Source: Moniliella sp. 'wahieum'
Lineage: Eukaryota
Reading direction: 5' to 3'
Length of the DNA stretch: 64,000 nt
NCBI GenBank assembly: GCA_003971905.1
Contig: RSEE01000025.1
Location: 620,001 to 684,000 of the forward strand
In this document: positions 2,161 to 62,700 of the stretch, in pieces
Layout of the letters: each line of letters begins with the position of its first letter
Numbering within the stretch: the first letter of the stretch is position 1
Notes under the pieces: generated by a model
Database searches by the model: none
Told to the model about the DNA's origin: nothing
What the model saw: only the letters and a program-made list of their open reading frames with translations
Made by a program: the position numbers and the translations under genes

Positions 2161-2683
2161 TTTTTGTTTTTATTGTAAACAGGTGCGCTCCCCCATCTAC
2201 CCTGATGGTAACAAGAAAAGGCCGGCGTTCGCTTGCACAAGGGCCAGAATGCTCTCGATGTGTCGACCCAGATTGGCTTAAACTAAACTACCTTGTTTTT
2301 TTTTGCTATGCCGCTATCCTCCGCTCTTCCCCTTCGTTCTTCCGTTCTGACAGTACTGATATCCCGTGTTATACTCTGTACTGTGGTGCACCTAAACGCA
2401 CTTTCGCCCTTTGGAAATATCCTCAAGAGCGCAAAGTTGTCCTCTGTCGTGGACCTAGACGCAGCTCCTGGACCAGGGGGAGGCTCAACAAATCTATTGC
2501 CTCGGCCAGCCAACTACTCCTCAGCACCTTACCACCACCCATGTGTATGTTTCTTCGTTACCCGTAATCGATAATCGATAATCCTTGAATGGGCCATGGT
2601 CTGCCAACTCAAAAGAACTACGTAGTACGCATGCTGCTGTACACCCATACCCTACTAGTATGGATTCAAAGTCTGCTCGACGT

Positions 2684-3829
2684 TCACTCGTTTGCCTGAC
2701 GCGGTCGTTTGGTCGCGCGACTATCATCCCACGCGCCGTGGCTCCGGCCTCCACGTGGACGGTACCCAAAGTCGGGACGGAAATTGTCCCTGTGTTCCCG
2801 TCGGTCCATCTGCGGGGCGGGAGCAAAGTTGGGACGGGCAGGGAGACCGGCCATGCGCGGCGGGCGCGGCAGAGAAGACGGGGCGGGCATCGGCGCGGGG
2901 GGCATGGAAAGGCCCATCATCCCATGGCCGGCATGCCCATCATTGGCATCATCGGCATATTCATCCCCATTGGCGGACCTGCTTGGTTCCGATCCCCACG
3001 CTGGTGGGACTGGAAGTCTCTCCCGCCTCGGCCGCGACCGCGCCCGCGTCCATCGCTCTGTCGCCCGGAGTCTTTGGGCAATACAGCATACGGGTTCCCT
3101 CGTGCCGAGAAAGCAGTTCCACTTCCATCTCCGCATCCTGATAGGGATTCTGGCTCCACCACTGCGCTAACGTCAAAGCATCCTGTTCGGAGCCAGTGAC
3201 AATGTACACCGCACCCTTGGACTTGCCATTGACCTTATGCTCCGAAAAGGTAATGTTTCGGAGTGAGATGGACACACCCGCTGCAGCGGCAGCTTGGCGA
3301 ATGTCCTCGTCCGTAGTCCACTGGTGGAGGTTAGTTCATCTTCCTCGTAACAAACAGAGAAATGGGAGGGGAGGGGCGCGTACCCAGTTGAACTCGCTCA
3401 CTGTCAAGGCGTCTTTCACGTTCGGATCAGGGTAGTGCGGCTGCTGCCAGGAACGGTTGTCATTCGAGTAGCCAGTGTCGGATTCGCCTGTAGGGCGGGG
3501 GGCGGGGGGGGCTGGGTTCGTGTACCCGCCGGAATCACGACGGGGAGGAGGGTTTGGGCTTGCAGCTTCGTCCGGGACTCGCTCTCCCGCGGGCGCTTGC
3601 GCACAATGGTAGGAGGCGAAGATGGCTCCGGTGGCGCATCTTGTGCGGCTGCTGCCGAGGCAGGTGCAGTGTAGAGGTCGTCCTATGGGGACAAGAAGGT
3701 ACATGATGTCAGTCACAGGCCGGAACTGCTTTCTGCCTCGCTGACAGGAGAAGGGGGGGGTGAAGGAGAGCGTGTTGCAGCAGGAGAGAAAGGCACACTC
3801 ACGCCATACAGGTCAAAGTCGTCTTCCAT
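2684..3829 (-). CDS. CPSF6/CPSF7 (CFIm68/59)-like RRM protein
   Basis: ATG 3829 MEDDFDLYG. Introns ~3802-3683 and ~3383-3321. RRM reads [15 protein letters not shown]...[14 protein letters not shown] (CFIm68 WWTTDED...NGxSKG signature), followed by RG- and P/M-rich tails. Frameshifts present. Confidence 0.75.
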
Positions 3830-5510
3830 TGTGGGATGGGCAGGGAAACAGGTACGCGCAGAGGACGGAAAATGCGTGTGCACAGAACACGACAGTCAAG
3901 CAGTAGACAAGAGCCAGAGGGGAAACGCGGGGGGCGGGCTAGGAAGGCGAGCGAAGTGGCGGTTGGCTGCCGCAACGTCGATCGGTTTTCACTGCCGCCA
4001 TCCATCGCAACCGAGCGGAATAGGCTACGGCAAGCTACTGCGAGCGGAACTAGGCTCGGAAGGCTTGCGACACGTGATTTGCACCGTATTGCGTCTTCTG
4101 TGTCTTGCTGCATGTTACTCCAGGGTTGAATGTTTACGTTTCAGCCGGGATGTCCGTGGGTTGTCCACACCGCGCCAGCAGCTCCACCCGGATGTTCGTA
4201 GTATTATAGACTACTGAGGGTTCGCTGGGCGTGAGTAGCAAAGGGTAGAGAGAGGTGGCGGGGTGGGTGGAGCCTTATACGCACTGAAGGCGACATCCCG
4301 AAGTCTATACCCTGGGCGCGGTTGTCAGATCATCGACGCCTCCTCCCAAAATTGCACTGCAATAAAGAGTCGAGGTTGATATAGGTCACATATAAGTATC
4401 GATCTCATCCTGAAGACCCACATAGTATCCAATAATCTATATACAGGGGCTCCATAATGCACATAAAGCGGCAGATAAGAGCCGAGTCAATGGTTAAAAG
4501 CCCGAGCGCGCCATGTGGAACTGAGAGTCCGTAGGAACCCAAGGATTTATTGGTGTTAGAATCTCTGGAGATGTGTAGAACAATGCAATGGCAAAGGTGT
4601 CGGTGATTCCCGGCTAAGCCTTCTACCACACCTGGAAGAGACAGGGAGTATACTTGTGCATCCTTCGGAGGTCAAAATAAGGGACCAATAGCGATATAAA
4701 GGCGCTTTGGTCTCTTCAATATGTGCAGCCTCTTCCATGCATCGCGAGATAGAATCCTACCGCCCATATGCTATCCATAGCGGGTTTGTACGTGAACAAG
4801 TGCGGTTGGAGGCGGGCGCCTTTTGACCAGGACATTGGAAAATGCCTACCCTGTAAAGGGCTCATCACCGAGTAGGGCAAATGAATTCTCTTCGATTGCG
4901 CCTCGCCTAATAACAAACGAGAAAAGAAGGGTCGATTGCGTGGTCTACTATAAGGGCGCAGCTGTGGATGGCGGCAGTGGAAAGGATGCGGTATGAGTAA
5001 GCAGAGAAGAGGATCCGAGTAGGAGGCGGTAGAGGTGGGCGCCCTGGTCAGTGCCGCGGCGCTGTCAAGTCCAAGTCAGTTAAGGCTCTCGTTTACATAT
5101 ACAGTGGTTATCGGCCGCCGGCGCCGTGTGTTCCTGTGGGGTAAGGGATCGCCCTCTCTGCGCCGTCAGGCCTCAGGCCTTAGGGGTCACATTTGTCCTC
5201 CCGGAGCTTTTGTCATTCCTGAAGTGTATACGCTCTTGGAGGCAGTCGTGCCCCAGAGAAGGCCCACCCATCAGTGTCGCGATTACGCACGCAAGCAGCC
5301 ACTTAGGCTCAATAGATGTGATGCCACGCTGGCGTAGTGGCGCCGGTAGTCCGTTCGGAGCCTTCGGGTTCATTCCTTGCAGCCAGGAACGAATATTCTC
5401 ATGTGCAATGCAATGCACTATACCATCTTCCTGTTGCACTCTATAATAATAGTCTTTCACGATGAGGCTGTCGAATGGATGTCCTGCACCGTGATGCGTG
5501 ATGAGATATG

Positions 5511-5540
5511 AGATCTGAGATCTGAGATCTGAGATCTGAG
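5511..5540. repeat. (AGATCTG)x4 heptamer array
   Basis: Read directly. Palindromic hexamer AGATCT plus spacer G. Confidence 0.95.
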
Positions 5541-7005
5541 AGCGCATGTGTGCCCTCCAGATGCGGTAGGCCTATTGTTGACGATGTCGGAAGCGATGAC
5601 CTTCTGCGGGGGGGGGGGTATAGTCTTGCGGCGCCTCTGGTGACCTGTGTGGGCTTTTGGTGTTATTGTGGGGCTGCGCGCGCCTTCCCCTACTTTTGCC
5701 ACGACATCATAGTCCGCCGGCGACAACCTCATCGATCATCGATCATCTCCCAACCACTGAAGTATATACGCAGGACGACGGCCACATCCTCCTCACGAAC
5801 CTGTGGTACCGCCTCCGTTCAACGTGATCAACGTACTCAACACGCATTTCTTTCGTGCAAGAGTTATGGCATTGTTTTTTGGGTTGCCGCGTTTTTCCCT
5901 TCTCTTTCCAAAAAGGTCCGACTACAACGGGGGGCCACTAGGCCACTGTGACAACACGTGATGAGTCCCGAGTCGGGTTGAGTTAGCCCATTTTCTCCCT
6001 TTGTTCGCTTCAGTCTTCTGAACACCGCATCCGTTTTCTGTGAACAACAACTATCTATTCTCTCGTTTTGATCAGAAGACGTTTCGTAAAGTCCCCGACA
6101 CACGCCCCGTATCCTGCAAAACTTACCAAACAGATAGGATTGCGCTCTGCCACTTTCGTTACAAGAGAGCAAAACTCAGCATCCTTTTCAAAGCTACTCT
6201 TCAAAGTCCAAAAGCTCCAAGCTCCACAAGCCCGTGCGTCCGGGGTTCCCTTCAATAGCTTCCATGTTAAGGTTCCGCGTTCAGCGTACGTACACAACAC
6301 AACACACGTCCGATCAATATCGCTACGGACGTGGGTGCATGGACAGTGACTAGCTTTTGACTATAAGGTAGTGCCATGGATTCCAAGAACCCAAGGAGTG
6401 GTGGTTTGTGTCTTACTATCACCGCACTGCAACTTTCAAAGTCAAAGTCGAGCAATGTTGCGTTCAAACCACGCTATCACATGGGCACCCAACCAGTGTA
6501 CAGCCCCCAGCGTTTGACAGCGCACCATTGCCATCCCCAGACCATCCCATTTGGCCCCTCTCCGCGGCGGCCAGCGTCTGGGTCTAGCTTCAGGCCCAGG
6601 CCTCAGGCCGGACTCAGGTACCATTTCCCATGCCCACGGCATGACATGGGCTGCTGTTGATGAACTCAGCGCACTCGGCATCCCCAGCTCCCCACCTGCC
6701 CATCCTCAGGCCTCAGGACCCCCACCTGGTCCTAGGCTACTGGCAGCTGGAAGAATGCGGATCTCTCTGAACGGGCGACAACCCTCAGTTTGCAGGGGTT
6801 GCCCCAAGGTTCACAACCGCTCCATCTGACCCCACTGCACATCATCTGCCTTGTCATGCATGCATCATGCCACGCCATCTTTACCGTGTGCTGGTTTGAC
6901 GCTTCAAGCTTCACATGTCACATGTCACCTGTCGAGCTGCCCATACTGAGCTCTGTCGTGTGCCATCTGCCCTCCCGCTCATGTCCAGGCCATCTGGCGT
7001 GTAGG

Positions 7006-10218: not shown

Positions 10219-11879
10219 ACGTTCACGCGTTCACGTTCAAGTGAATGAACGGTGAATGGTGAACAGTGAACGGATCGGAGCGGATCGCTCGGGTGGTGGG
10301 GTAGGGGTGTAGAAAACGAGGTGAATCGGGGTCCGGGGGGGAAATGGTATATGGCGGGGGGAGGGAGGAAGAGAGCCCTATACGTCTCTCCTCCTCTTTT
10401 TGCTTATTTTTTTGTTCTATCTCTCTCGTTTTTGCCCTCCTTTTTCCTTTTCGCACACACAGCACAGATCCGGTTGGTTTATTGCTTGTTTGTTTGCTTA
10501 TTTGCTTGTTTGTTGGTTTGCTGGTTGGTTGTTTTTTTTTGCACTTGGCCCACCACATTTTCACCCCCTTCCCTCCAGATGTCTAGACACCTACCTTACC
10601 CCCCTCCCTACCGTCGAACAATTTCACTGCCTTGCTTTTCCTCACCGCGTGGCGCCCGCCTCCCGTCCCACGGATCAGATCATTGAATCATCCCGCTTGG
10701 GCCCATAGTTCTTCAGGCCAGATACCGTGCCCTCGAGGATCTGGTGTGCTTCCCTGTCCCCATTCGCATAAGTATTCCTATTCGTATTCGGTTTGGGATT
10801 GGGATTGGGATTATCTCGATTATCCGAGACGCAACACCAAGGCCAAGCCCAAGACGCACAAGCCCAACATGCTACAGCTAGCCTGCTACAACACCCACCA
10901 ACGCCAAACAACGATGCAAATAATAGGACTGGGGAATCGGTAGCGTTGGCTGCACTGCAATAGATGGAACGGTAACAAAACACAAGTGCTAGCAATAGCT
11001 TAGCAATAGCAGTAGCATGGCATGGCAATGGCATAGCGTAGATCCAATGGGAGGGAATCGGCGGCAGGCGGGTGTGCGGGGGGCGTAGCAGAGGTAAGGT
11101 TCAAGACGTACGTTCAAGGGCATACAGGGTTTACTTGCCCAGAGGTCACGAACAAAAAAAAACAGGTTGCAAAAGGAATCGATCACGCGAAACCTTCATT
11201 GAGGTTTCGGAGAATGAAGATGAGCGCCCAGACTGGGCATTCATCATCGCAACTGCGATAATACTACGTGACCTGACAGCGTAGAAAACGTGTGTATTTC
11301 TAGAAGGATGGAATATTGTCCGCTATACCAGTTTCTCTGCTAGATGTGTGCTGTTCGTCCAGAGAGGACGTTGGGTGCGCCTCTGGCACTTGGCTTTCTT
11401 GTCGCATCGGCTGGCTCCACTCAACCCAACGGCCCAACCCTCATTAATCATTGCATACCTTCTCGATTAACGATGGCCCACCAAGCTTCTGCAACCTGTC
11501 GGACATTCTCACAGGATGAGTCAATCTCTGCGCCTGCTCTCATACGCGTTGCGCGTTCTCCTTCCCATCATGCATGCCACACTTGACTTGCATCGGACGA
11601 TTACTATATCGGAGTATTCCCCACATGTGCTTGCCACCCCTTACTTGCCAAAACGTACGCGACACTAGCAGCCAGCAATGCGGGTTCCCCATTCCAAGGC
11701 ATGGGCATGCAGTGGCGGTACCGGTAAGATATGTAATCCATCCTCGAAGAAGCTCCGTGCTCATCACCGATCCATAACCCCACATGACAAAAAAAGAGAA
11801 GCAAAACAGAGAGAGGCAGGCGGGAGGTTGAGGAGATGTTCCATCAGTGATAATGGCACCATGGTACCCTGTTACCCTG

Positions 11880-13164
11880 TTACCCCTCCAACGGTCGTTC
11901 CACCACAAGCGCCACATTGATCGATTTGATGTCCCCACCATCCTCTTCAAACATGAGTTGGTAGGTGGACGAAAGCCGATCTAGATCGCTTTGGTGGGTC
12001 TGCTGCGCATCAGCCCGTCGGCCCTCTTGACCCGACCCCCCACTGAGAAAGAAGTACGTACCTTGCCTGTAGGCCCTCCGCCCATGACGGTGGCAGGGTA
12101 GAATATGGTCGTGTCGGGGTAGACGGCCAAGACTTGTTGTCCCAAAGCGTACTCACGCGGTGGGAGCGTCCGGCCCGATTCGGGGAGGGGAAGAAGAGTT
12201 TCGAGGGTGGTACTGTACGTTTTGCTATGAAATCGCGTTAGCGTCAATCATCATCATCGTGGGGTAGGGGGAGGGGGGGGGTAATTCTACCAGAGTAAGG
12301 GAAAAAGGGGACGTACTCGGTATTGTAATCGTCTCTCACCACGTAGCGATTGTGATCGTTGTGGATACACTCTACCACTGTAGCCATGATCCATTCTTCC
12401 AGCGACGCGGGGTCCCCATTAAGCAGAGGCGTACGGAACGCCACCTTGCGCCCGGGCTGGAGAGGTAGCTGGGATGCATCCTGTTCCCGCTCTGGACGCA
12501 CTTGGTCGTGAAGGGGGAAGTGACAGCAGAGGGAACGGCCGAGGTGGCCCGTTCTGGTCCAGAGGGTCGGTCTGCCACTTTACGCTGTGCTTTCCCGCGC
12601 TTGGAAACGGGCGGGTCGGAGGGATTGTCCGAGGTGTGGGAGGCGGAGAGGGACGGGGTGGTGGCAGGAGAAGCGGTTTTTGAGGGGGGAGGATCGACTC
12701 GCCTCCGTTTACGAACAAGCACGTCGTCGGTGGAGGGAGGAGTGAGTAAGGCCTGAAGAATGGATACCTTCTCGTACGCATTATCGGACAAGTCGTGGGC
12801 TAGCTGCAGACGCGGTCGCAGCTCGGCACGCACGTCGTCCAAGCTGCGATCGGGCCAGGAAGGGTTGGTCACCCGCCATGCCTGGATCCGTTCGTACTCG
12901 TCCTCGAGTGGCTTGATCTGGTCACGCAGAACATCGAGTTGGCGCAGCTGCTCGCGGATCGAAGTCCAGAGCTGGGCTTCCTCAGGGCCAGCTGCAGAAA
13001 GGGAAGGAGAATGATTAATGATTAATGAGCACTGTGAACATGATGGCAGCCGCCCTGCCTGCTGGGCGGTGTTCTGTTGAGATGCGCCCAGCAACGGCAA
13101 GCATCCGAGAGGGAAGGGAAGAAAACAACGCACCATTTCCACGGCTGCGACTGCGCAAGCTCAT
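11880..13164 (-). CDS. SGF29: SAGA-associated factor 29 (tandem Tudor domain)
   Basis: ATG 13164 MSLRSRSRG. N-terminal helical region, then LQPGRKVAFR...EEWIMATV...RYVVRD, VLAVYPDTTIFYPATV and YQLMFEED...ALVVERPLEG*. Three probable introns. Confidence 0.85.
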
Positions 13165-14493
13165 GCGGGCACGCGGGTGTGGCGGGTGTCCTCGACCCGG
13201 GTGGGGGCAGCAGACGACGATGACAAGACAAACGAAGGGTGGTTGGTTGACGTGAGCACGGATCTCACTAATTAATTGCATGTATTAATTACCAGTCTCG
13301 TAAAGCCAAGCAAGCCTAAAAAAGCGAATAGGCGCTTTTAAAACCAGCTGCCCCCCCACCCCTTAGTCGAGAGGATCACTCGTTCGACCGGGCCAAGAGG
13401 CACTTCTTGCATTACTTGCTTGGGCTTCAAACTTGAAGCTTTAGTTAAGGAAGGGTCTAAGGGTCTGCCAACAGGTATTACTACTATAGTATATAGGCGT
13501 GCACAACAATGCAACTCGTGCCACCAAAGGCATACGACCAAGTAAGGGGGGAAGAAGTGGGAACATCGATCAGTACTGATCCCTACCCGCGTATACACTC
13601 CCACGCTCGTACGCTCCTCCTACTTTGTCCGACACTCGCGATGTTAAAGTCCTACGCTGACCCGATGTTCCTAGGGGATCGCCAGGGATCGCCACAACAG
13701 AAGAGAGCAGGTATTATACTTTTGTCTTCCCCCCCTCCCCCTCAATACAGCCGCGCTGCACCTGGTTTGTCGTCCACCGGGAACCCGACATCCAGGAAAC
13801 ACAGTCCGAGCGGGCAAGAGACGAAAGGGAGAAGAAAAGAGGGCATATATGGAGAGAGGGTAAGGAGAGAGGGTCAGGGGCGAGACGTGTGGGGACAATG
13901 GTTGAGAGGTGCTCAGCCTGAGCCGTACCCGGCCTCAAGATTGTATTCCGTAACCAGTGCTCAGTTGAGGCTCCTGAGCACCAAACTCATTTCTCCACTC
14001 AATCCAACGGGGAGCGCTGCGTACCAGAGACCATACCCACCAGTGCGCCCAAGCCTGCCCCAAGCGCGTTCAGTTCAACGTTCAACGTTCAAATCAAAGC
14101 GTTCAGTTCGTCTTCAACGTTCTGGCGCTCAGCTCAGTCTGAGCGCTGAGGCTCAGCCTGAGCCTCAGAGCGCGCCTCAGCAGGCCTCAATCAGGGTGTA
14201 CAAGTTCAGTTCACTATTTTCAACTCAACGAACGTTTTGTTCCTATCCCGTTGAGTTCAACGTTCCACATCCCACCTTCAAGCTTCAACCGTAACGTTCA
14301 ACTTGAACGTACTGACCTTCAGATCTCAGAGACCGACGGGTGGCACCGACGCATGGACACTGATACGGAGTATTACGGACTTCCAATCGACAACACCCGA
14401 GGCCGAGGCCCGAGGCAGAGAGACTGTGAGAACCGGCTGCAGTGGGGCGGCACGGCACGGCACGGCACACGCCATCAATTCCATTGCAGGTCC

Positions 14494-18978: not shown

Positions 18979-21900
18979 GGTTGGCAGAGGGTGGGGTGGG
19001 GGAGGGAGGGGGTGTGCGCGCGAGAAGAACGAGAGGTGAGTCACTGGGTGGGGGGGGGTCGCGGCGCGGGGGGGCGAGAAGAGGGGCGGGGGGAGGGGGC
19101 GGAGGGCGAGGCGAAAAAGGCCAGCAGCGACGGGCGAAGCGAGCCCTTTTAACCACGCCGGCCGAAGCGTCTGTGCACCAGACTGCGCCCGCGCCGCGCC
19201 CCCGGACAAGCCTGAACTTGGTGGGGGCACGCGGGCAGTGTGGGCGAGGAGTTTGTTGGGCGCTGGGCGCTCTGGAGAGTGAATAGTGAATCTGCGTATG
19301 CATTCTGCATCCGCCGTGGATTTTGCACTCTGCCTTGCGTGCGGGGGCGGCTGGCTGTCCTGGCTCGGCCTGTGCGTGGCACCAGCCCAGCCACGCGCCC
19401 CGGCGCATCACCGTCGCCACTAGTATGGTCTCCCACGCCATGCGCTGGGCATGCGCAGCACGGGAGCGCGGCCCACAGCGCACCCACGCGCGCGGCTGGC
19501 CAGTGCGGCGGGTGGGTTGCGCCAGCCGCATGCATCACTGCTGATCAGCGCGGTGCCGCTGATCAGCGATGGGTTAGGGTGCATGCAGTACGATCGGTGA
19601 CAGCAATCACACCACGACACGACATCAGACATCCGCCCCTGACTACTCTGACGCCTGATATAATAGTGGCCGCAGCGGTGCTGCAGCCTTCCCGGGGGCG
19701 TGCGGCAGCCGCTCGGCGTAATTCCATGGGCGAGCGGGATCGCCCGCACCCCCTAGGGAGCGATGATCGATGATCGATGATCGATGAACGTTTGTTGAGC
19801 ACTGAGCGTTCGGCCCCGCGCCCCGCACGGCGCCACTGTGCCGGGAGCAATGCAGGGCGGGGGCGCACCTGCCGGCCGAGACGGGCGGCGCGCATGCACA
19901 CCTGAGGCTTGGCTGGCGCGTGCCCGCTGCTCCCTCCGCACGGCGCCAGTGCAAGGTCGCGACCAAGCGGATTCTTTGTCGGGTCGCAGTGGTCAGCATG
20001 CACCACGGCCAGCTCCCCCAGTGGCAAGGCGGCTGGCGGGAGCGTACCGCCCTCGTAACCGCTGAGGCTCAGCGCTCCGGCAAGGCTGATGCCCTGATGC
20101 ACCCCTGACTAGTGACCGGTGGCCGTGACCCCCCCGTGCAGAGCGGGCAGTACGTTCTGAGGCCCTGCGGGGGAGTGAGTTCGGGATATGAATCTGAGCG
20201 CTCATGAGCAGCGCAAGCGAAGGCTGGTGTGGCCGTCGTGTGGGCGCGGGCCGGCGCTGGAGGCACGGGCCCTGTGGAAGGCCTTGGCAGGGGCTGTCGA
20301 CCCGTGAGCCGTGCATGACGTCCCCTAGGATCGACATCCGTGCATCCGCCTCTCCCCACGCGCGCGCTGGGCTGGCCACCGGGCACTGCGCCGCACTGGG
20401 CCACACGCGGCAGGTGGCTGGGATGGGATTGAATGATCGATGATCGATGGGTTAGGTTGGGTTGTGATCTAGGCTCTCTCTCTCTCGCTTCCCCAGGCCG
20501 CCGTGGGCCGACCTGGGCCGACCAGTCAACCGGTCAGTACGTTCAGTAGAGTATGAATACGAATCCTGAGTTCACCCGGGACGATGTTCAACCAACCAGG
20601 CCGCGCGGCAGCAGCAGCGCGCATGACCCGCTCCACTGCCGCTCCCCCCAGTCAAAACAAAACGTTCAGCGTTGTCAACGCGCCAGCGTCAACGTTCATA
20701 CGTTCATTCACGTCCACCCTTCCAGCTCCACCGCAGGCCTCGCCGGTCTTTCCGATCATTGATCTGACCGATCATTTCGATCATTCCAGCTCGCGGAACG
20801 AGTGGGTCGATCATCGATCAGTTCTCAAAGGAAGCCAGAGCGAAGACGCTGCGTCGTGGCTCCATCGACGTTGGATCCAGCTCCTACGTCAAGCTTCAAG
20901 CGTCAAGCGTCAAGCTTCAAGATTGCAGCAGCTATGTAGATTGTTTGCGCTTCAATTGAATATTGGCTTTCTGGGCGTGTGCATGGCTAGCATGAGTAGC
21001 ATCGCCTTGCACCCATTTTTCGGAGCCATTCTAATTCTACCCCTACCCTTGCCCTCTTCTTTTCGCTCCGCTCCAGACTCCTTGGCGCCTTGGCATCGAC
21101 TTTCGAGAGCGCGCCTGCCCAGCTTGCTCGGCTCGGAGCTCCGCCACATCCCCATATGGCTGTACACACCCTCTCCTTTGTGTATAAGAAACCGGTACGC
21201 ATAACCGGCATAACGCATCTGCATCGCCGGTACCCCCCTTGGAGCGTATAGACTTCACATGTCACATGACCGTCACACGTCACGGCAGGTGGCGCTGCCG
21301 CCTGCGAAATCCTGCGTCTCGTTTTCCCGGTTCCCCCCGCCTAGCGCTGCCAGGCCTGCCTGCTTGTTGGTTGGTACAGCAGCCACCAGCCACTAGCCAT
21401 GCCTCAGGGGCAGCGGCAGTGTGTGGTAGCCGGTATGCCGCCATGTGTGGCGGGTACCGTACCCAGCACCGGTTTCGGTCCTGTCCCATGTCCGGCTCCA
21501 CTGGCCGCGGCAGCAGCGGCGGTGGAAGCGGTGCGGCGCCGCGCGTGGCCCTGGACCTGAGGCTCAGGCCTGCGGGAGCGCCGGAGCGCCTGCCTGTACT
21601 GACTGGTACTGAGTACTGAGTTACTGACTGGGCGCTTGGCTTTTTTGGTAGGAGGATCTCACATGCTGACATGCGGATCTGCTGACATGCATGACAAACA
21701 ACAGCGAGCATGCATCATGCATCATGCATATGCACGTGCATGAGCCTGCTGCATGATGGGTGAGCCAGCGCTCAGCGCTCACCGGACACACACACCAGAG
21801 ATCTGCCGGACTGAGGACCTGAGGAACTGAGGAACTGAGTCCTGCGCTGTGGTTTCGCCTGGGTTGCGGGCGAGGCAAGGATCACTGACACCAGGGTCCC

Positions 21901-22466: not shown

Positions 22467-22520
22467 AAGCTTCAAGCTTCAAGCTTCAAGCTTCAAGCTT
22501 CAAGCTTCAAGCTTCAAGCT
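22467..22520. repeat. (AAGCTTC)x7 heptamer array, the longest of the palindromic-heptamer family
   Basis: Seven perfect units at 22467-22515 plus a partial unit. Confidence 0.97.
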
Positions 22521-24697: not shown

Positions 24698-24734
24698 CTG
24701 CATCTGCATCTGCATCTGCATCTGCATCTGCATC
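24698..24734. repeat. (CTGCAT)x6 microsatellite
   Basis: Read directly. Confidence 0.95.
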
Positions 24735-46100: not shown

Positions 46101-48168
46101 CCGCAAAACGTTCTTGAAGGTTGAAGGTTGAAGCTTGCAGTATTCACAACAGTCTCTGCTCTTGAGATTACGAGCTGGATACAACTTGTCGGGTGCGATC
46201 TGATATAATGCGATCGCTGTTACATATTTGGCTCCTATACTCTTCACAGGGAGCAAAGCATCAGTTGTTCTCTTGTCCACCAGCGTTCGGTACGTCGGGT
46301 GCGTTCAACGGTTCAACGTTCCAGCGCGCCACACAGGTTCCACGTTCAACGTTTCAACGTTCACACTTTCAACGTTCACCGGTCACCGGTCATTCCTGCC
46401 TTTTTTCACACACGACTATACTGCATCCAATATGTATGGTTTTGTGGCCACCGATCGTACCGCGAACAGGTTGAGCTGAGCTCTTCTGGTTTGTTTGCAT
46501 ACATAGGCAAAATGATGGTGAAAAGGGCGGAGATGACACGCATCACAGTCGTGAGTATCAAACCTACGCGCTGGGATATTGAGTCTATAGCTTTAAGCCA
46601 CCCAGCTTTTCAAGCTTTTTGACATGAAGCTTGAAGCTTCACTTGAAGTTTGAGCGCTTTTGAGCCTTGAGCTTGAGCGCCTTGAGCTAGCTTGAGCGCT
46701 TGAGCAGCTTTGACCTTCAAACTTTTCACAACTGCAAAGCCCTAAAAAGTTCATGATTGGGATTCACGCAGGGCACGCGGGTCACGTGCTACTATTATAC
46801 CAGCGTAACGCGTAACGCCCTTTTGACTCGTAGCGCGAAGGCTCGAAACGCGTAAAGTGTAAGACGCACAACGGGTTTCGGACGTGGCGAGTGGCCATGG
46901 AGTCGTCCGCGTCATCCGCGCCAGCGTCATGGATGGAATGGTCTGGGGGGGGCAAGCAACTGCCGGGAACTGCCAGTGACGTTATGGTTGTTGCCACACG
47001 ATTAGGTACGTGGTGTGAGTCGGTGTGAGATCTGAGAGGCATGTGCGGTCGCGGCTAACACGTTCACGCGTTCGCGTTTTTACAGGGGACATCACATGTG
47101 ATATGTGAACATGTGAACGTTGTGAACGTTGAGTACGCCGAACGCGCGGAATACGTGGCACAACAGGACACAATATTCCTATGAGTTACCAGCTCTCGCT
47201 CCCCATTCACATATTCACGCCGTAACGCGTAACGCGTTAGGTAAGTAGTAAAGCTAGACAGAAGGGGGCAGATCAGATCTCAGATATCAAAATTGTGGGT
47301 AGGTGGTACACCCCCCTGGCTAGGTGATGCAATGGTACCATTGGGCGTCGATATTCGATCGTGGCCGTGAAAGTGTATTGCCATCGGTCTCGCGTTCAAC
47401 GTTCACGCATTGACGTAAACGGCGGGGGACATTTTCACAGGGAAATCAGTCACCTCGTGATGTTTGGCACGTCCCGCCGGAACCGCCACCTTCGGCGCCA
47501 CTTTGGGTTCATTTACACTGAGACAGGGTTGCGGTATTCCCTAGATTCACTCGAAGCTTGACCGCCGAGCGTGAAAAAAGCGGCCGTGAAAATAGCTCCG
47601 CACGGGGGCAGTGTGCAAGCAGCTCCTCGTTTGAAAAAGCGCAGACGGAAAATGCACGCGTGGATGATCATCACCCATGCCACCGATGAGATCCAGGAGC
47701 CCCCTGCGACGTCCAAAGGCCGAGGTCCACCTCGCCTCAGCGCCTCAGCAGCTCAGCCCAGAGGCCTGACCAGATTTTTCACTCTCGATTGTCGTGCCCT
47801 CAGGCTCAGGCTCAGCGGCTCAGCCTGAGCCCTTGCCTCAGGGTTGTCAGGGCCTCGGCGCCTCAGCCGAACCGTCGTCGTCCGTCAGGGCATCAGCCAC
47901 CAGCAGAACCCGCTAAGCCCATGCAGGCAGAGGCATGCTCTGGCCGCCGCACGCAGCTTGCAGTGGGCAGGACAGGCCATGGCGGCTCGGAGTCAGATCT
48001 CAGACAACAGAGATGCCTGTGGTCTGCGTATGCCTGCCGCCTGTTCTGGTCTCTGCGCCCTGGCCACTAAGCTTGCTCGTGGGTTGGAGCAAGTGAACTT
48101 GCTGACCCTCTCTCAACTCTCGACTTCCATCCGTCTGTCCTTGCCCCTGGCTTCTACCTTCTCACGCC

Positions 48169-53096: not shown

Positions 53097-53133
<37 letters not shown>

Positions 53134-53338: not shown

Positions 53339-54462
53339 GTCAACAGTCTTGGAGGTTGGTGCTGGGCGAAGAGACGGCGCGACAAGCAAATGCAAACAGA
53401 AGGCAGCAGCAGCCTGGCCCCTACAGAAAGAGTAGGGTTAGCTTCCGCGTACGTCATCAGTGTAATATTTCGCCGCAGCAGGTTTTCACCACGGTACTAG
53501 GGTTGCAAACGCCGTCTGGCGCACGTCACGTGTCACGTGTCACCCTTGGTCTGACGTCGTGGTCAAGCTGGTCAAGGGTCCGATGCCGTCTGCCAGCGAC
53601 AACTGGAACGCGGGATTAGGTCGTGCACCAATTGGTCTTTGCGTGGCCTCCTCAACCATTGTGATTATCCACCCGGCATCACGTGAAGTCTGACGTCCCC
53701 GCTATGGACGTTCGCACCAGCGTGCCCCCGTTCATACTAGTGGTTGCCAGGTAAAGCTGCCGGTTGTCATTCATTCCAACTCACTTGTACCTTTCCCCTA
53801 CCCCCCTTCGCTATCTCATTCGTCGTGTTCACTAGCTTCAGTCTCCACCGTACGGATCCCGCGGGCTGGGGATAATATAAAAGATTGAGGTGTTCTCTGT
53901 GGCACGGCCTGCTCTACCATGTCTTTGCCCGTGTCAACCTTCCGGCCAACCTTTCCGGCTCAAAGCCTACAGACATCCCAGTCTGCTCGTTCTGGTGCAC
54001 ACCAAACTTTGCCACGGGAGCCTACGCCTCAACTCATCAGAGGCCTCGCCTTGTCTCTAGCTCCATTCGGATATGCCAGTACTAATGTTCAAGCTCGTCG
54101 ATATCAACTGTAAGTGGACTTGTTCCAAGGGAAAGCGCCCTATAAACTGTGGGTCGGACTCCACAGTTCGGGATCATAATCCGCCCATGACATAGAACTG
54201 ACATATGCATAACGAGGAGACCACCGGGCCTACGGCCCGGTCTGCTGTGTCCACCTTAGCCACCGTTCCCCGTCGCCACCGTAGCCACCGTTCCACGCTG
54301 GAACCCATCACGCTGGAAACAATATCACCGATACGTGCTGGCTGGCGTGGCTGGCGGCGCCCCCGGTGGCTGCGCCACCGGTGGCTTACGCAATGCTTGT
54401 AAAAACAGTGGTGCACCCCGTTCGGGATTCTAATTCGGATGCTTGAACAAGCAGAATGCGAG

Positions 54463-54813: not shown

Positions 54814-56551
54814 ACGTTGTCTAGAGATGCATTTTTCCTCTGGGCAGTGCATGATTTGTCCGCCAAAGGGATTCCTATACCAGTGGTCACTAGGTCACAG
54901 TCACTGTCTGCCAGCTATTACTAAGAACTCTGCATAAAAGTAGAGAGCAATGCGCAAAAGGGCGATAGGGCGTGACTGGCGTCTAAGAAAGCCCAGACTC
55001 CGTGTTACGGGGCACTCAGGTTATTTCCGGACGAGCGTAAGCCAGCTCATCTCATAGACATCTCATCCAAACACGCGTCAATCGCGTTACACTAGCGAGA
55101 GAGAGCAACGGATACCTTATCCATGCTGGAAATATCTCATCCGCTGCCCGCCCTGTGGCCGCATGTGCTTATCGGTACGATGCGTTGTGCTCATCGCACC
55201 CAGTCACACAACCCTTTAAGCTTACCTGTGCTGCGCCCAATTGCGCAGCGTCAACGTTGAGAGCACGGGATCAGTCTTTACCCTCTGGAAAGTTCCCCGC
55301 ATTCTGTTTATATACCTCTGTGTCATGAGGCACTTGAGGCCTGAGGCCTGGTTCTTCTGTATATAGTAAGCAGCCCTGCGTAAGGCTTGCTATAGCTATG
55401 GTCCTTGTCGACCACCATGTTACACCTGATACTGACCTGTTGAATTACTGTCCCTGTTCTCTACCCTTTCCATTCCTCTCTCGCCCATTGCACCTTCTCC
55501 ACCGTATAAATTTACAAACTGACATGTCGGTTACACTCTAAGCCGCGGTACTCGCAACCTAGCGCTTGCTCTTCGTTAGGAACTGTCTGATTCACCTATT
55601 ACACATCGCGTGTCGAGTGTGGTAACGCCCCAGGGTAACCCATAATGCATAACCCACGTTACGCGTTACCACAGAGTTCCTGTGAACCCCCGCAACGGGT
55701 CTGGCCGGACTTTACGTACGCTCCTTCCTCGGAGGTTCTGAGCTGCGGTCGTTGCACGCAGGCGCCGCCCCCCAAACTAGAGGATCTCCCCCTCGCCTCT
55801 ACACCAACCCGCTCGGTTCGACCAGGATCTGAGGCAGGACATACCGGATGTGGTTCCGATTAGCCGTTCAAAAGTTATAATACCCCCCTAAACACCTTAA
55901 CCACAACAAAAATGCTTCGTCGTTATCGTCTTGTGATATGTAGAGAGTGAGGACCATATGTATAAGAGCTGAGTACTCAGACTGAGTGTGGAGAGAAGCA
56001 CTGCAAACGAGCAACTATAAACAAGACATTATATTCTCACAAGTTACTAGTTACCGGCTTCCAACGTGGTCCAACTGAAAAATTCTAAGGCTAAAAAGGA
56101 GCTTCCAGGAAACCAGTTAAGCAGGTTAATATTTAATGCGCAACCCCCGGAGTCGAGATGCCAGCTTGGAGGCGCGGCGCTGCCGAAAGCTTGACGGAAC
56201 GAGAAAAAGAAACGCCCCCCTGGGTGGTTCATTTCTCAACGTACCCAATAAAACCTCCGTTGCCGACAACATTGAACGTTGAACGTTGAACAGGCGCCAT
56301 AGCACCGATGCATATGTGCGTACTCTTTCTGCCTTTCGCTCTCACCGTTTACATGGTGACGAAAGGGGGGGAATTCAAAGAACGAACGATGTGGATGGCA
56401 TCTGTTAAACGTAGGACTCAACAACGTTTTGACATGAAGATAGATTGATAGTAGATCGATAAGATGCGGTGCGTGCTGATGCAGCGCTGATGCACTCTGA
56501 TCAGAAGCACAGGACGATGGGCGAGATGGTCGATGGGAGGCTATCCGGCTA

Positions 56552-56966: not shown

Positions 56967-57834
56967 AGAGTGGAGAGCGAGCAGCAGACGGCCTCTTATG
57001 ACCGACTAGTAGGACTCCACTACAGGCGGGCTTTCGGCCTGACCTATTAACCGCGGCAAAATATCTGCCAACAGCTGTACGTCATACCACCCCGCCGCCT
57101 TACACCCAGCTGTGTGTATCTCAGCCAGCCGATCCCTATAAAGGTAACCACAATCATCGTCAGACGCATGTGGCCATGATGCACTTGATGTGTCCTGCTT
57201 CGTGCTCTTCTCTTGGGCGGCAGGCCGATCACAGTGACTTGTCAAGCGTCAGCGCGTAAGCTTCAAGCTTCAAGCTTCAAGGCACTACTTAGGACCTCAT
57301 CGAACTCATGATTATCCACAATCTCCACACTTCTCGCGCCGTAATCCATAAGCTTAGAGCTGCCGGCCATCGGCCAGTAATGCGTAACGGCAACTGGCTA
57401 AGCTTTTGTTTGAACTTGGGTGCGGATGCAGACGCAGACAGAAGGTGAAAACGGTGAAAACAGATGGATGAAGAGAAGAAAGGGCGGGACCCATTGGACC
57501 CGGAACGGGATCCGGGGGATAACCCGGAGCCGGTGCCTGTCCGCACAACTTGATGGGCTGTGACATGTGATGCATGTGAACGCATGAGCGATGTGAGATC
57601 TGAGATGAGCGCATAATAAGCATCGGACCAAGCACCCTGCCCACCTCAGAAAAGCACCGGGCGGGCGTGGTGGGGAGCTCCGCCTCATCACCGCACCACA
57701 CAGTATAATATGGTACGTGATCACATTATGTGTCAACGTACGTTCAACATGATGTGGACTGTACGTTCCACACGTTACATGCACATGATGCAATGATGTA
57801 ATGATGGACTCGGAGACCCCATTGGGGGCCATTC

Positions 57835-57872
57835 AAGCTTCAAGCTTCAAGCTTCAAGCTTCAACGTTCAAC
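57835..57872. repeat. (AAGCTTC)x4 continuing in phase into AACGTTC
   Basis: Read directly. Confidence 0.95.
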
Positions 57873-59682
57873 GCCAACAAAAGCATCAAGCTGTGTCCGA
57901 TGAACGTGTTGCTGGATGCACCACGCCTGCCAGGCTTCACATCCAAGTAAGCACTAAGCCCAGTCGGCAGCTCCAGCCACATTCATTCGCTGGGACAGTG
58001 CCGCTGGGGTGTCCGCGGGTTGTGCTATAGTGGCAGAGGCCATATGATATGATCGACGTGATCGCGCTTGTTGCCGCATCGGTGGCTCCGATGCATGCTC
58101 AGTTTTTGCCGTATCATTTATCATTTACACTAGACCGGCGCCACACGCATATAAGACACGCCGCGCGCACTGACTTGCCTTTTGGAATTGTTATTTGCGC
58201 GAGCCAAGCAGCTGCCTTTGGCACTCCTTCCTTTGCTCTCTCCCTCCTTCCGCCATCCCCCTCACCACATCTTCGCCCATCCTCTTTTCGTTATTTGCAC
58301 CCATGACCTGCTGTCTTCGCCATACTTCCTATTCACCCTCAATGTCCCATGCTTCCGGACTCTCACGTACGTATGTCCTCCGTGCATCGCCTCAAAGTCA
58401 CCCCTCTTCTTCTGTATCTAGTGCCCCCATTTTCCCAATCATAACCGGGCTAATTCCTTGTCCATCTTGCAGGAAGCATGGGCAACATGGCACTCGGTCC
58501 CTACGTTCGCTGTCCGTTCTGCGACAACATCATTGTCAAGTTGAACGAGTGACCTCCTGCCACCGCTCCTCATCGGGGTACGTTGCAAAGAACCCTGAAG
58601 CTTCACCTCAGGCCTCATCCCAGTCCCGGCGGCTGGTCTCCTGCCCCTTGGTCCTTACATGCTCCCCTTGACTTGTCGCCATCGACTGTTACGTTGTGGG
58701 ACTATGCGTCGTGGATCATGACGAGCCCTGAGGTCAGGGACCTTAGGCCTATGATCTGCCTCAGCAAGCCTGCTCCCCCGCTGAATCATGGTCACTGAGC
58801 TGGTTCCATTTCGGCTCTCTCGCCCCAAGTTTCATGAGTTTGATCGTATATTCTTCATCCCTCTGTCCAGCTTCCCATTACCACATCGATACCATCACTC
58901 TCCTCACATGAACATTTTGTCCTGTATCCTGTTTCTTCCCATTTCGTCGAGAAGACCGCTAGGCAACGAATACATCTCCCCCTCTCCATCTCGAACTTTG
59001 GACCTACTTATTATCTTCTTGACACCATACTCCATGTCATGCCTTGGGGCATCTGCATCTCCGCTCTACTGGCTGCCGTATTGTGATATGCTCGCAGTGC
59101 CACGTTGTTTCCTGGTGATTCTACATCGTTCTGCTCAGTCCCGTTCTCTTAGCCCCCAACACACTAGTGTAGCCCAATTAAGGACTGGGCAATGGGGTTG
59201 ATTTAATACTCTCTAGTTTTCTTTCGAGTCTCGACTGGTAATGGGTTGGTTTTCACTCGCGAACTCATTCTATTGGGGCCTAACAAGGTACATCGCAGGT
59301 ACAACACGCGTCCAGTTCGAAGGGAGGATTAGGATGGGGAATCTCTGTTGGTGTGCCCTGCTACACCTTGCACACACGCCGATGAAGGATTGGGCACAAC
59401 GGTTGTGGGTGTGTAAATCAGACTGCAGTTGACCATCTCATCGTAGTAACGTCTCTCGTGGCCTCTTGGTCTCTCCGAATTGCCCGCTGTTCGCAATGAA
59501 TCCAAACTCAGTAGCTCTATCGGACGTACTAGTCAGCAAGTTGATTGGCTTTGCAATGCAAGAACATGGAATTCATCAAGCTTCAACCTGCAAGCTTCAC
59601 GCTTTCTAGCTAGCGCAAGGGTGGTGCAGGGGAAGTATGAGCATCTGAAATGCTATCTTGCAGGAGGGACAACCGGGATGCT

Positions 59683-60498: not shown

Positions 60499-61037
60499 GG
60501 GGAGGGGGCCGGTGGTGGTGGTGGTGGGAGAGCGGAACAATGAACACCCGGGGCGATGACGCGGATGATGATGAGAGCTCTGCTCTGCCCCAGCCCATTC
60601 TGCGCCTGGAAAAAATTGAATCCGAAGGAGCCGCAGCGGCACGGCGCCACTCTCCCATGTGGATGCGCGCGCGCAGAAGCAACACTGTTCCCCTGCAGAA
60701 ACCCTAGCGCTTGGCAGACCAACACCAACAACGCATCCGCTTCAATTTCATAGATGGACCGGACTGTTGCCCATCGGACGTTCGTCCGCTCTTTGGTGTT
60801 CCACCGCCAACCGCAGCTCAGCCTGAGCAGCCCTCACAGGCTCACCCCAAAATGCACCATCGAACGCATTGTATGCGACTGACGAACTGGGTGTGCCGCC
60901 CAATAGAGTGCGGGTAGAATTTACCACAGACCTCTTCTCTAGATCGCCCCCCCCAGCATCGGAACCGAGGCAAGGCGAATGAAGTTATTCGGTCGCAACA
61001 AAGTTTGAGCTTCGGCCCGTTAGGGAGTTAGAAGGCA

Positions 61038-61291
61038 AAGTACCCAGGGCACATTCAAGGTTGGTTCTTCCTCCTCTGTAGCCATGACGACGCGAGAGTA
61101 CTATGCCTCAAGACTGCTATAAGGTGTTGGTTAAGCACTGAAAGGTGCTACAGCTGAACTTTTGGGTCTCTTACAGTGATGGAGATAGTTTCCGCTCTCA
61201 TGCCCACCCGCTCATTATTGGTATCTCACTGCTTTTGTGCTCCTTATTGCGGTTTGTAAACAAGTGGTGAGACCCAAAGGATCTTGGTCTC
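61038..61291 (+). pseudogene. Dispersed repeat copy C, strongly diverged, with in-frame stops
   Basis: AAGTACCCAGGG...TGACGACGCGAGAGTACTAT...AAGACTGC matches copies A/B. HWK is now H*K and WREPEG is now W*DPKD. Confidence 0.6.
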
Positions 61292-62700
61292 TGCAGGTAA
61301 CCGGTAACACTATTTCCCTCTCCTAATTGGACAGGTACTGTATAAAAGTCGAGGGAAGGCAGGTACAACCAATTAGTGGCTAGTCAAGAAGAGGTACATG
61401 ATTTGTTGCCGTAAGAAAAACAGAGCAATGGCTAAGGACGGGGCTTGAGAGCTTGAGGGAATAAAAGAATCCCGGTTACCTAAATCGGACCTGACGCGTG
61501 ACGGGCAGCGCACGTGTGGAAGCAGACACCGGATGAACGCTCAGGCGCTTAGGCTGAGCGAACGTGGTGGACAAGTGTTTCTCTGTTCCCTTGACGATCA
61601 TCGAGATGACGCGGACGCCTCTGCTACAGGAAGCAACCTATGAGGCACTGTACTCAGATCCACCTACCGCCCGCCCCCGCACAGATGCCACCAGGGATGT
61701 GGCAATCCGGTTGGAGTTTAAAATTTAACGTTTCATGTCGAACTGAATGTCGAGGTCAACGTTTCAATCTTCCACTATAGTAAACGCCCGCCCTCTCTTG
61801 TCGGTCGATGCACGATGCAGGATGATCGATGATCGATGATCGATGAGGCCTCGGCCTCAGCGTCCTCAGCCTGAGGATACTACTGCGATCGATGATTCTT
61901 CGCCTTGTCGCGGTCCCACAGCCGACTCCACACCACCACATGGCTCAGGGCGGATGCTCGGTGCGGGACGATCGAGGATCCCGATGAGGTCGATGAGGGA
62001 GAGAGAGAATGCCTGTCTCTGTCTCCCAGCCTCTGTGGGCGGCGCAAGAAGGGGCTCGTCCTTTAGCTTCTCCAGCTCTCTCTGCTATACTATTAGTCAC
62101 AAAACCCCACCGCGGGGGGGACACACAGAAGAGTGGGCACACCCGGTGGCGGTGCCTGTCGCTGCCGAGTGACAGTTTTGCGAGAAGCACGTGTACCCCC
62201 CACATGCATCCATGCATCCATGCCTCCACACACACCCCAACTGAAACTGTGGTGTATTGGACATTTTGCTCTGCATGTGGGTGGCACCATGTGTGGCTTC
62301 CTCGAGAAGTGGCATACACGTTCAACCAAGAAGAACGCCAGCTAAAAGGGCGTAAAAACCCCAGAGCTTGACTAATTAGTACATACCCTACAATAGATGT
62401 GTATACTGTTAACTGCCACGACCAGAGCCTCTCGAGCACCCCCACAGTATGCCACATCTATCCTGATTCAGAGAGAGAGGCGCCACCGTTCCCTTCAAGA
62501 CCACAGCCAGCCTCTCCTGTTGTACTCTTATGGATGGCGCTAGGCACGGAGCGATTTGGCCGAACGCGAACGTTGTGGCGCAGACTCTCGCGAGCTTAGT
62601 GCTGTTTTTTAGTTCCAAGCGAGAGGACGCTCGCGCCTTCGTTATCTCTCTGTCATAACATCTTGTTGCTTGTACTAGAGTGAAGAGTGACTAAAAAGCA

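Follow-up and report, generated by a model that had tools for sequence, protein, structure and literature searches.

TNA-anchored 7-bp repeats in a Moniliella genome: an enzyme-like duplication rule and its possible origin in excision footprints

Repeats of 7 bp in the smut-related fungus Moniliella sp. 'wahieum' follow a precise rule: TxA and the two bases after it (ab) are followed by the inverted b'a', and then by TxA-ab again. With TNA as the anchor this order is met at 77/110 loci, compared with 0–3 of 29–45 for control anchors. The DNA analysed, hereafter the window, is a 64-kb stretch (GCA_003971905.1, RSEE01000025.1, 620,001–684,000, forward strand; positions below count from its first letter). 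We give about even chances to the reading of these repeats as mutational scars, namely stereotyped footprints left on excision by a putative flank-hairpin cut-and-paste transposase whose target is the 7-bp NN-TNA-NN, with arrays built by renewed hits or slippage.

The family of 7-bp A-NNNN-T+1 repeats is real. Exact arrays of period 7 and at least 14 nt number 82 in the window, against 3.1–4.7 in Markov shuffles (30 each, orders 1, 3 and 5). In 44 of these an A...T palindromic hexamer and one further base make up the unit, a class for which the shuffles give 0–0.5; two arrays are of the C...G class (25640 and 53525), none is of the G or T class and 36 are non-palindromic, each palindrome class making up about 2.7% of all 16384 heptamers. 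A sequence-only reading of this DNA had proposed such an enriched family, and all 25 of its coordinates lie inside, or a few bases from, an exact period-7 array of the named unit. Its count of 13 of the 16 A...T cores is that of the 44 arrays, and all 16 occur once single units are included (91 merged sites); its statement that palindromes starting with C, G or T form no arrays is right for G and T and wrong for C. Among the 36 non-palindromic arrays 19 are one change off the rule (random heptamers, 29%). One non-palindromic period-7 array, at 14503, has 6 copies, and exact tandem arrays of periods 5, 6, 8 and 9 also exceed the shuffles. The family and its more informative arrays are as follows.

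2565..61846, unstranded: whole family, 91 merged TxA-ab-b'a'-TxA sites, with 44 exact arrays of at least 14 nt
Exact-array starts 1–22 of 44: 2565, 5166, 5509, 5729, 6704, 6911, 13010, 14073, 14811, 19761, 20433, 20807, 21255, 21606, 21709, 21766, 22239, 22267, 22320, 22464, 22627, 22848
Exact-array starts 23–44 of 44: 23047, 23889, 23969, 24059, 24356, 24513, 24600, 24654, 25375, 26994, 30177, 41741, 46376, 46625, 46803, 47221, 55335, 56272, 57258, 57832, 57860, 61821
5509..5541, unstranded: array, core GATC, 4.7 periods
13010..13028, unstranded: array, core TTAA, inside the SGF29 gene, upstream of a probable minus-strand splice acceptor
14121..14170, unstranded: chain of inverted TGA/TCA pairs with 3-nt spacers, of a minor inverted class
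19761..25525, unstranded: densest cluster, filling part of a long gap bordered by a P-type ATPase gene (PMA1-like, minus) and a gene for succinate dehydrogenase flavoprotein
22464..22520, unstranded: longest exact array, core AGCT, 8.1 periods
24349..24378, unstranded: compound array, core CTAG then CGCG, register kept
46353..46392, unstranded: compound array, cores ACGT and CCGG
57832..57873, unstranded: compound array, core AGCT then ACGT (both inner bases changed as a pair)

The sites are unevenly spread. The interval 20–26 kb holds 34/91, and in this densest cluster TNA-TNA distances peak at 7, 14 and 21 (91, 47 and 36, against 18 expected); 30–45 kb is almost without the lattice (39 vs 30). 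Pfam-supported coding DNA (8657 bp in all) holds only one of the 91 sites, an 11-nt single unit at 33617, where TNA counts predict 10.1 (p=0.0006), in agreement with the earlier claim that arrays sit outside exons. That claim extended to an array at 13014 in an SGF29 intron: the surrounding gene is SGF29 (PF07039, E 1.8e-12), and the array stands immediately before a pyrimidine tract plus AG on the minus strand, a placement consistent with an intron. The only Rfam and ARAGORN match in the window is a tRNA-Ala at 30601. Genes of the assembly show frameshift-like breaks. A dispersed 370-bp repeat (~26485–26845 and ~54470–54810), the only paralogous pair in the window, shows no 7-nt indel between its copies, which differ by several direct duplications of 2–5 nt.

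We scanned for direct repeats W + 2 nt + W, with W ending in TnA+2, and scored whether the spacer is the reverse complement of W's last two bases; AnT, CnG and GnC in place of TNA served as control anchors. The pattern TxA-pal4-TxA with the same x occurs 125 times, against 1, 6 and 6 for AnT, CnG and GnC and 2.4 in 20 shuffles; perfect inverted sites, in which x is flipped, number 13. The two bases that adjoin TNA on one side dictate the core: 57/71 single-unit sites match on at least one side; both sides match in 14/57, where an arithmetic estimate of chance gives ~3.6. About half of the sites (47/91) are 10–13 nt long, below a full duplication, and the mode over all sites is 12–13; single-unit sites terminate on the axis of symmetry, an extension by 1 being less common than by 0 or 2. 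Orientations are balanced (80 vs 77), and x has no strand bias (C16 G16 T8 A3). When TNA is not imposed, its T still stands exactly 5 nt before the fold-back point in 104/173, 13/30 and 10/15 hits for |W|=5, 6 and 7. AT-only cores are depleted (6 vs 16.6 expected, p=0.0025) and core usage is mildly biased (chi-square p=0.015). A minor inverted odd class (26 sites vs 8.8 expected) is not accounted for by the main rule.

Two rarer classes delimit the duplicated segment. The spacer is inverted in 13/25 loci with |W|=6 (the 6+2 class, period 8; control anchors 0–2 of 7–12) and in 10/14 with |W|=7 (the 7+2 class, period 9; control anchors 0 of 0–6), compared with 0/2 TNA loci with |W|=8. Counted by extra duplicated flank bases (k=0, 1, 2, 3), the oriented matches are 157, 13, 10 and 0. 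The duplicated segment is thus 5, 6 or 7 nt and never reaches more than 2 nt left of TNA, the limit at 7 coming from small numbers (10 vs 0). Because the 6+2 and 7+2 sites copy one or two more flank bases and none copies three, the segment is bounded 2 nt out from TNA on each side, and the geometry is a 7-bp staggered duplication plus two even-centred P-like bases. In a two-overhang table the cells (4,1), (1,4), (4,2) and (2,4) hold 8, 5, 4 and 6 sites, with at most 0.1 in shuffles and 0–1 for control anchors; P bases from both sides are nearly absent, with 0 in (4,3), 0 in (3,4) and one ambiguous site in (4,4). Five of the 13 6+2 sites, with CG or GC cores, are also perfect 8-bp tandem duplications.

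6+2 class, all 13 starts: 10220, 20692, 22570, 23268, 25603, 41848, 46345, 46690, 47103, 47205, 47733, 57785, 61443
10220..10235, plus: 6+2 example, one extra flank base duplicated
57785..57798, plus: 6+2 site without the A..T hexamer
61443..61457, minus: 6+2 site without the A..T hexamer
7+2 class, all 10 starts: 10809, 20769, 23931, 24666, 25005, 32560, 46672, 47112, 53560, 61982
24666..24684, plus: 7+2 example, NN-TNA-NN duplicated whole, two inverted bases between the copies
10809..10824, minus: 7+2 site
20769..20785, minus: 7+2 site
23931..23947, minus: 7+2 site
25005..25021, minus: 7+2 site
32560..32575, minus: 7+2 site
46672..46687, plus: 7+2 site
53560..53576, plus: 7+2 site
61982..61998, minus: 7+2 site
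47103..47132, unstranded: compound junction, one chain of 6+2, 7+2 and a single 5+2-type core
56475..56494, unstranded: single site with 7-bp copies and two inverted bases per side (both hairpin overhangs kept); ambiguous, alternatively 9+2

Read from their sequences, 17/23 period-8/9 sites keep the TNA and the fold-back point and lack the A..T hexamer. Together with the dictation of the core by a one-side flank, this leaves the hexamer, which the sequence-only reading had taken as the unit, not supported as such; it is a by-product.

Several other readings of the sites were ruled out. A 3-bp TNA TSD with element-end remnants fails as cores vary and mirror the flank; whole duplication of a pre-existing 7-bp palindrome would give a mode of 14 nt, not the 12–13 observed; pure fold-back inversion would flip x; and dipyrimidine damage is incompatible with an x without strand bias. 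Neither a preference of x for S over W above background (70/91, p=0.14) nor a dependence on partial microhomology (the bases at -1/+3 pair in 19 of 65 and those at -2/+4 in 17 of 65, close to chance) is upheld, and apparent preferences at +5/+6 and at -7, -5, +7 and +9 come from eroded neighbouring units.

In the footprint reading, a 7-nt staggered cut centred on T-N-A (t1 t2 T x A a b) would duplicate 7 bp upon insertion. Excision would then seal both flanks as blunt hairpins, to be opened by a host nuclease 2 nt from the tip—a property of Artemis—leaving the 4-nt overhangs a b b' a' and t2' t1' t1 t2. End joining that retained one whole overhang plus 0, 1 or 2 bases of the other would yield 5+2 (net +7 bp, either orientation) and the rarer 6+2 and 7+2, the product classes observed; the A-NNNN-T hexamer would appear only because joining places the overhang beside the T of TNA. 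The 5+2 product would itself be a palindromic target with both overhangs fully compatible; new hits or slippage may add exact 7-bp units, and later point mutations would erode the arrays.

A two-fold symmetric cut would account for the balanced orientations and the unbiased x, and favoured compatible ends or palindromic targets for the excess of both-side matches. Two hallmarks of footprints are present: direct duplication of a fixed-length, two-fold symmetric target (5–7 nt, none at k=3, from few sites) and inverted P bases from the flank end in all three classes, with controls at chance. All 16 cores occur and coding DNA is avoided, observations on the side of footprints. On the other side, it would be odd for an ordinary transposon to leave more than 100 scars in 64 kb and not one filled site, and both the perfect 8-bp tandem duplications at 5/13 6+2 sites, which the model does not predict, and the near absence of two-sided P bases speak against it. 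The 370-bp paralogous pair, lacking a 7-nt insertion, offers no example of a site before and after an event. Within the 64-kb window we found no TIR element flanked by an NN-TNA-NN duplication: a search for pairs of identical NN-TNA-NN 7-mers, spaced by 40–10000 bp and inverted at their inner ends, gave 7 hits, each formed by the arrays themselves (shuffles 0–2). The 99 ORF translations of the window contain no transposase family, although assembly frameshifts could hide one.

A mobile element may not be needed, and a one-step copying error, or a cargo-free host or domesticated nuclease making the same ends, is a possible origin that we place well below even chances. In the copying-error route a nick at or just before TNA would prime strand-displacement synthesis that ran 2 nt beyond TNA; at the branch point the nascent end would switch to the displaced flap, copy two bases backwards and be ligated to the flap, as a sequence-anchored form of 'alternative duplication'. 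Such a route fits the absence of filled sites, yields exactly a direct copy plus inverted spacer and never two-sided P bases, and could give 5, 6 and 7 from a variable nick position. It offers, however, no reason why synthesis should always stop 2 nt past TNA, why the inverted bases should be exactly two, or why the left boundary should be limited to the mirror position (k=3: 0). Duplications with internal templated sequence from 3' flaps are known in yeast and human cells, though the available part of the source states neither sequence anchoring nor a fixed size (PMC12633238). More doubtful is a cargo-free, sequence-specific DNA-writing activity, such as a domesticated RAG-like hairpin nuclease cutting 2 nt either side of T-N-A, whose fixed +7-bp repair would regenerate its own best substrate.

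Slippage clearly acts in this DNA: 36/82 arrays are non-palindromic, periods 5, 6, 8 and 9 exceed shuffles and the 370-bp repeat copies carry 2–5 nt duplications. It might make 7-bp duplications, among which hairpin-forming (palindrome+1)n units would be corrected, expanded or retained in preference to others, much as CNG triplets are; array lengths have a long tail, up to 8 periods, that agrees with slippage, and hairpin stability predicts the depletion of AT-only cores. We consider this unlikely, and slippage as the origin is largely refuted. It leaves TNA unexplained, with control anchors at chance; the even-core rule is absent at periods 5 and 9 (12 vs 9.0; 0 vs 0.8); simple microsatellites would repeat an arbitrary unit in full at least twice, whereas 47/91 sites are shorter and the units are not arbitrary; and the hexamer-less 6+2 and 7+2 classes have no place in it. 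The sequence-only reading was right in that the family is not explained by ordinary slippage.

That reading had suggested either a hairpin-related generative process, which is the likely cause, or selection for a TNA-N4-TNA code. A cis-regulatory or structural code under selection, recognised by a DNA-binding protein, would suit the avoidance of coding DNA (for which frameshift selection alone suffices), the clustering upstream of the PMA1-like gene (34/91 in 6 kb), the patchy distribution and the mild core bias. As the generator it is very unlikely and not supported: protein binding has no need of a core that mirrors the outer flank on one side, leaves unexplained the spacers of 5 and 6 that follow the same rule, and would favour the perfect inverted sites preferred by a dimeric factor, which are ten times rarer than direct ones (13 vs 125). 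Selection may still keep some arrays. A sequencing, amplification or polishing artefact, suggested by the frameshift-like gene breaks, is hardly credible given exon avoidance (1/91 vs 10.1), eroded and compound arrays and three ordered size classes unlike technical error.

The first appearance of microsatellites with long units is usually attributed to chance duplication. In this DNA they appear to be created, at ~2/kb of non-coding DNA, by a precise enzyme-like rule that feeds on its own products. If the footprint reading is true, this would be a new birth route for short tandem repeats, and the scars reveal the target (NN-TNA-NN), cut geometry (7-nt stagger, blunt hairpin) and repair spectrum of a putative element. 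They would also document past transposition densely, in a fungal lineage that has been little sampled. If instead a cargo-free activity is at work, intergenic DNA would be built, and microsatellites born, without mobile element or slippage.

Among known systems, prokaryotic heptamer repeats share period 7 and a non-coding location (PMC4692102), and identical heptamer units are present in bacterial, metagenome and viral contigs among the matches listed. The 271 comparison loci (1.28 Mb, among the matches listed) have one unit family each, with non-palindromic variants, whereas the Moniliella window has 16 cores and so departs from one family per genome or locus. In these loci non-commonest cores (15, 43 and 23) are at control level and 6+2/7+2 events number 1–2 per set; the loci that scans of genome, metagenome and viral contigs for single-core arrays brought up are prokaryote-like or viral, and none shows the many-core rule among the matches listed. 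A link of bacterial heptamers to four-helix-bundle genes found no support in the literature. The 'alternative duplications' from 3' flap Okazaki fragment maturation likewise combine a duplication with templated internal sequence, but the Moniliella repeats are fixed in size and TNA-anchored (PMC12633238). Ac/Ds leaves short, stereotyped palindromic insertions in the yeast Candida albicans, resembling those here; its palindromes have an odd centre, formed by the complement of the bordering base (PMC5873905), whereas our main class is even-centred with x unflipped (125 vs 13 flipped) and so does not fit canonical Ac/Ds footprints. The minor odd inverted class (26 vs 8.8) might fit Ac/Ds.

A further likeness is to flank-hairpin chemistry, that of hAT, Transib, RAG and MULE: in RAG/V(D)J coding joints, Transib, the MULE Muta1 and hAT, a two-fold symmetric target is duplicated directly with a short inverted flank-end copy between the copies, as here (PMC5499845). 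Compared with such footprints, the Moniliella scars have one dominant product (net +7 bp), an NN-TNA-NN target and one-sided P bases, lie at ~2 per kb of non-coding DNA, seed tandem arrays and come with no element in the window. Transib TSDs are 5 bp and GC-rich, which does not match these scars. Nor does the mostly precise excision of Muta1 (>90% when TSDs are present; PMC5499845). The hAT7 families of basidiomycetes have 7-bp TSDs and so share their duplication length with the Moniliella scars (PMC12730594).

The window holds 82 exact arrays of period 7 that are 14 nt or longer, against 3.1–4.7 in Markov shuffles and 9, 12, 15, and 12 at periods 5, 6, 8, and 9. The sequence-only reading had described repeats built from an A-NNNN-T palindrome plus one base, and this family is real—the unit takes that form in 44 of the 82 arrays, far above the total in shuffles. 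Its further statement that palindromes starting with C, G, or T form no such arrays holds for G and T (none) and fails for C (2 arrays). Written as the 10-mer TxA-pal4-TxA, where x is the middle base of a T-any base-A triplet (TNA) and pal4 the palindromic core, the pattern occurs 125 times with the same x, 13 times with x complemented, and 1, 6, and 6 times with control anchors (AnT, CnG, or GnC in place of TnA). Merging these matches leaves 91 sites, and each of the 16 possible cores is represented; their spread is patchy, with 34 of the 91 within 20–26 kb of the window. The arrays were also said to lie outside exons, and they do avoid them strongly, with one exception: a single site of 91 falls within the 8657 bp of supported coding DNA, where 10.1 would be expected. 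Positions 30000–45000 have hardly any period-7 TNA lattice, though much of the DNA there is apparently non-coding. Other tandem repeats do not follow the rule: a TNA-free 7-mer (6–8 copies) and units of 6, 10, and 14 nt lie at 14493–14548, 24698–24734, 27370–27407, and 30383–30430.

At 47 of the 91 sites the repeat is only 10–13 nt long (mode 12–13), which is below the length of two heptamer copies. Of the 71 single-unit sites, 43 extend the period by at least 2 nt on one side only, 14 do so on both sides, and 14 on neither; the common form is therefore TxA-ab, b'a', TxA-ab, where ab are the two bases after TNA and b'a' is their inverted copy. Five bases thus occur twice, and an inverted copy of the final two separates the repeats (5+2). 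When repeats of the form W + 2 nt + W with W = TxAab are collected, the spacer is inverted at 77 of 110 loci, compared with 1 in 16 by chance and with 1/29, 0/35, and 3/45 for AnT, CnG, and GnC. The two orientations are equally frequent (80 and 77), and x shows no preference for either strand.

The same junction recurs with longer duplicated segments: with one more flank base (|W| = 6, period 8, or 6+2) at 13 of 25 loci (p ~6e-10; controls 0–2 of 7–12), and with two more (|W| = 7, period 9, or 7+2) at 10 of 14 (p ~7e-10; controls 0 of 0–6). At |W| = 8 there are 0 of 2 loci and at |W| = 9 one ambiguous site (56475); oriented counts for k = 0, 1, 2, 3, and 4 extra duplicated bases are 157, 13, 10, 0, and 1. 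In 104/173, 13/30, and 10/15 unselected hits the fold-back point and the T of TNA are 5 nt apart, and the A...T hexamer is kept at only 6 of 23 period-8/9 sites read by eye, about chance level; this fixed distance, with the hexamer at chance, makes TNA a positional anchor and not a pairing partner. The boundaries are symmetric about TNA, with the fold-back 2 nt to its right and the duplication limit at most 2 nt to its left, and these limits match the shape of a staggered duplication of 7 bp, t1 t2 T x A a b.

Features located in the window are as follows.
10220, 22570, 41848, 46690, 47733: perfect 8-bp tandem duplications, b'a'-N-TxA-ab, in which ab is always CG or GC
14121–14170, 20060, 21557, 22765, 22926, 34667, 47812–47830, 55970: alternating TGA/TCA chains with 3-nt spacers, a second, inverted junction class
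26485–26845 and 54470–54810: two inverted copies, about 90% alike, of a 370-bp non-coding repeat
1622–1655 and 1849–1882: a pair of 34-nt inverted arms with 88% complementarity and 193 nt between them
30601–30672: tRNA-Ala (AGC) gene

The reading we favour is that the sites are excision footprints of a postulated flank-hairpin transposase with a 7-bp NN-TNA-NN target. Under this reading, a blunt hairpin would close each flank of the duplication, and opening it 2 nt short of the tip would give the ends a b b' a' and t2' t1' t1 t2. RAG hairpins are even-centred, hairpin opening by Artemis takes place about 2 nt from the tip, and mismatched overhangs are joined by ligase IV. Overhang retention at TNA, counted as matches and not merged loci, with cells on the diagonal i+j=4 sharing array units, gives (4,0) 80, (0,4) 77, (4,1) 8, (1,4) 5, (4,2) 4, and (2,4) 6, and for the larger joint cells (4,3) 0, (3,4) 0, and (4,4) 1; the listed cells reach at most 0.1 in 20 shuffles and 0–3 in the three control anchors. 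Cells such as (0,0), (2,0), and (3,0) are about equally raised in the control anchors; these counts reflect tandem duplication in general. A first 5+2 event would leave one copy as a palindromic target with compatible overhangs, so later hits would add exact units; 20 of the 91 sites hold two or more cores (maximum seven). Slippage could equally add exact units and is here indistinguishable from re-hits. PMC5499845 treats flank hairpins as established in hAT, Transib, RAG, and Muta1, a MULE. In PMC5873905, Candida albicans Ds footprints are short, with 53 of 128 clones from two of 28 types, and the hairpin-opening enzyme of baker's yeast is named as Pso2.

Several observations count against footprints. 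Inverted flank bases from an opened hairpin (P bases) are nearly never retained from both sides, the outer flanks of compound arrays, where site sequences were read, are often one base off the unmutated two-sided model, and the five 6+2 sites with CG/GC cores double as perfect 8-bp duplications that the model leaves unexplained. Muta1 excision is precise in more than 90% of events (PMC5499845), and Ac/Ds footprints are odd-centred (PMC5873905), which makes a canonical hAT unfit for the main class. All 7 candidate filled sites in the window are made by the arrays themselves, and Pfam found no transposase family among 99 ORF translations. A serious rival is a one-step copying error—nick, strand displacement, and template switch—that would produce the 5+2 pattern with no element involved and is similar to the flap-derived 'alternative duplications' of PMC12633238, but leaves the symmetric limits unexplained. 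The pattern works like a hairpin-type excision footprint; since the element itself is missing from the window, we withhold membership among such footprints. A cargo-free enzyme is an improbable agent; such an enzyme would make this a system of a new kind.

Inverted junctions form a minor class: TxA-a-n-a'-Tx'A occurs 26 times against 8.8 expected, even-spacer inverted sites 13 against 2.6, and those with 5-nt odd spacers 11 against 2.1. The TGA/TCA chains lie mostly within GC-T(C/G)A-GC and CC-T(C/G)A-GG words. These classes may represent longer or offset hairpin openings, in events whose orientation could not be polarised. The 370-bp repeat has no Rfam match and no evident TSD; its copies, the sole paralogous pair compared, differ by several direct duplications of 2–5 nt and by no 7-nt insertion. 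A 17-nt odd palindrome (1835) lies between the 34-nt inverted arms, around which no flanking duplication was seen.

The window is eukaryotic DNA. Its fructose-1,6-bisphosphatase (FBPase) has 78–82% identity to Tilletiaria, Kalmanozyma, and Violaceomyces proteins and one further record, and in a tree of 27 rows falls on the smut-related (Ustilaginomycotina) side of a split with support 100/99, the tree resolving no finer position. The 99 translations were drawn from 127 stop-to-stop ORFs no shorter than 130 aa and a few shorter ones, with most frames overlapping recognised genes omitted; Pfam named alcohol dehydrogenase, mitochondrial carrier, P-type ATPase, succinate dehydrogenase flavoprotein, IBR protein, FBPase, cyclin, and a GH28 fragment, and also an SGF29 gene. 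Apparent frame shifts inside conserved genes (15840–19040, 12244–13160, 35204–36250) suggest uncorrected indel errors of assembly.

We found no fungal precedent for such a pattern in a literature search thin on subscription papers; a heptamer excess in bacteria is already known (PMC4692102). Identical units form arrays in prokaryote-like and viral contigs at 271 loci among the matches listed, each a one-family repeat. On an 18-kb viral contig (L254), one heptamer (core ACGT) forms ten arrays at 297–16630, some inside a repeated block; one bacterial array (L001) strings together related 7-mers in a long mosaic, and another (L009) lies directly 5' of the start of an ORF that may be four-helix-bundle-like. 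Across three sets of listed loci, whose counts are not independent since some viral loci overlap, the commonest searched core accounts for 147/162, 205/248, and 90/113 sites with other cores at control level, and 6+2 or 7+2 events number 2, 2, and 1. The prokaryote-like and viral arrays thus hold one core family per locus, whereas the Moniliella window holds all 16 cores.
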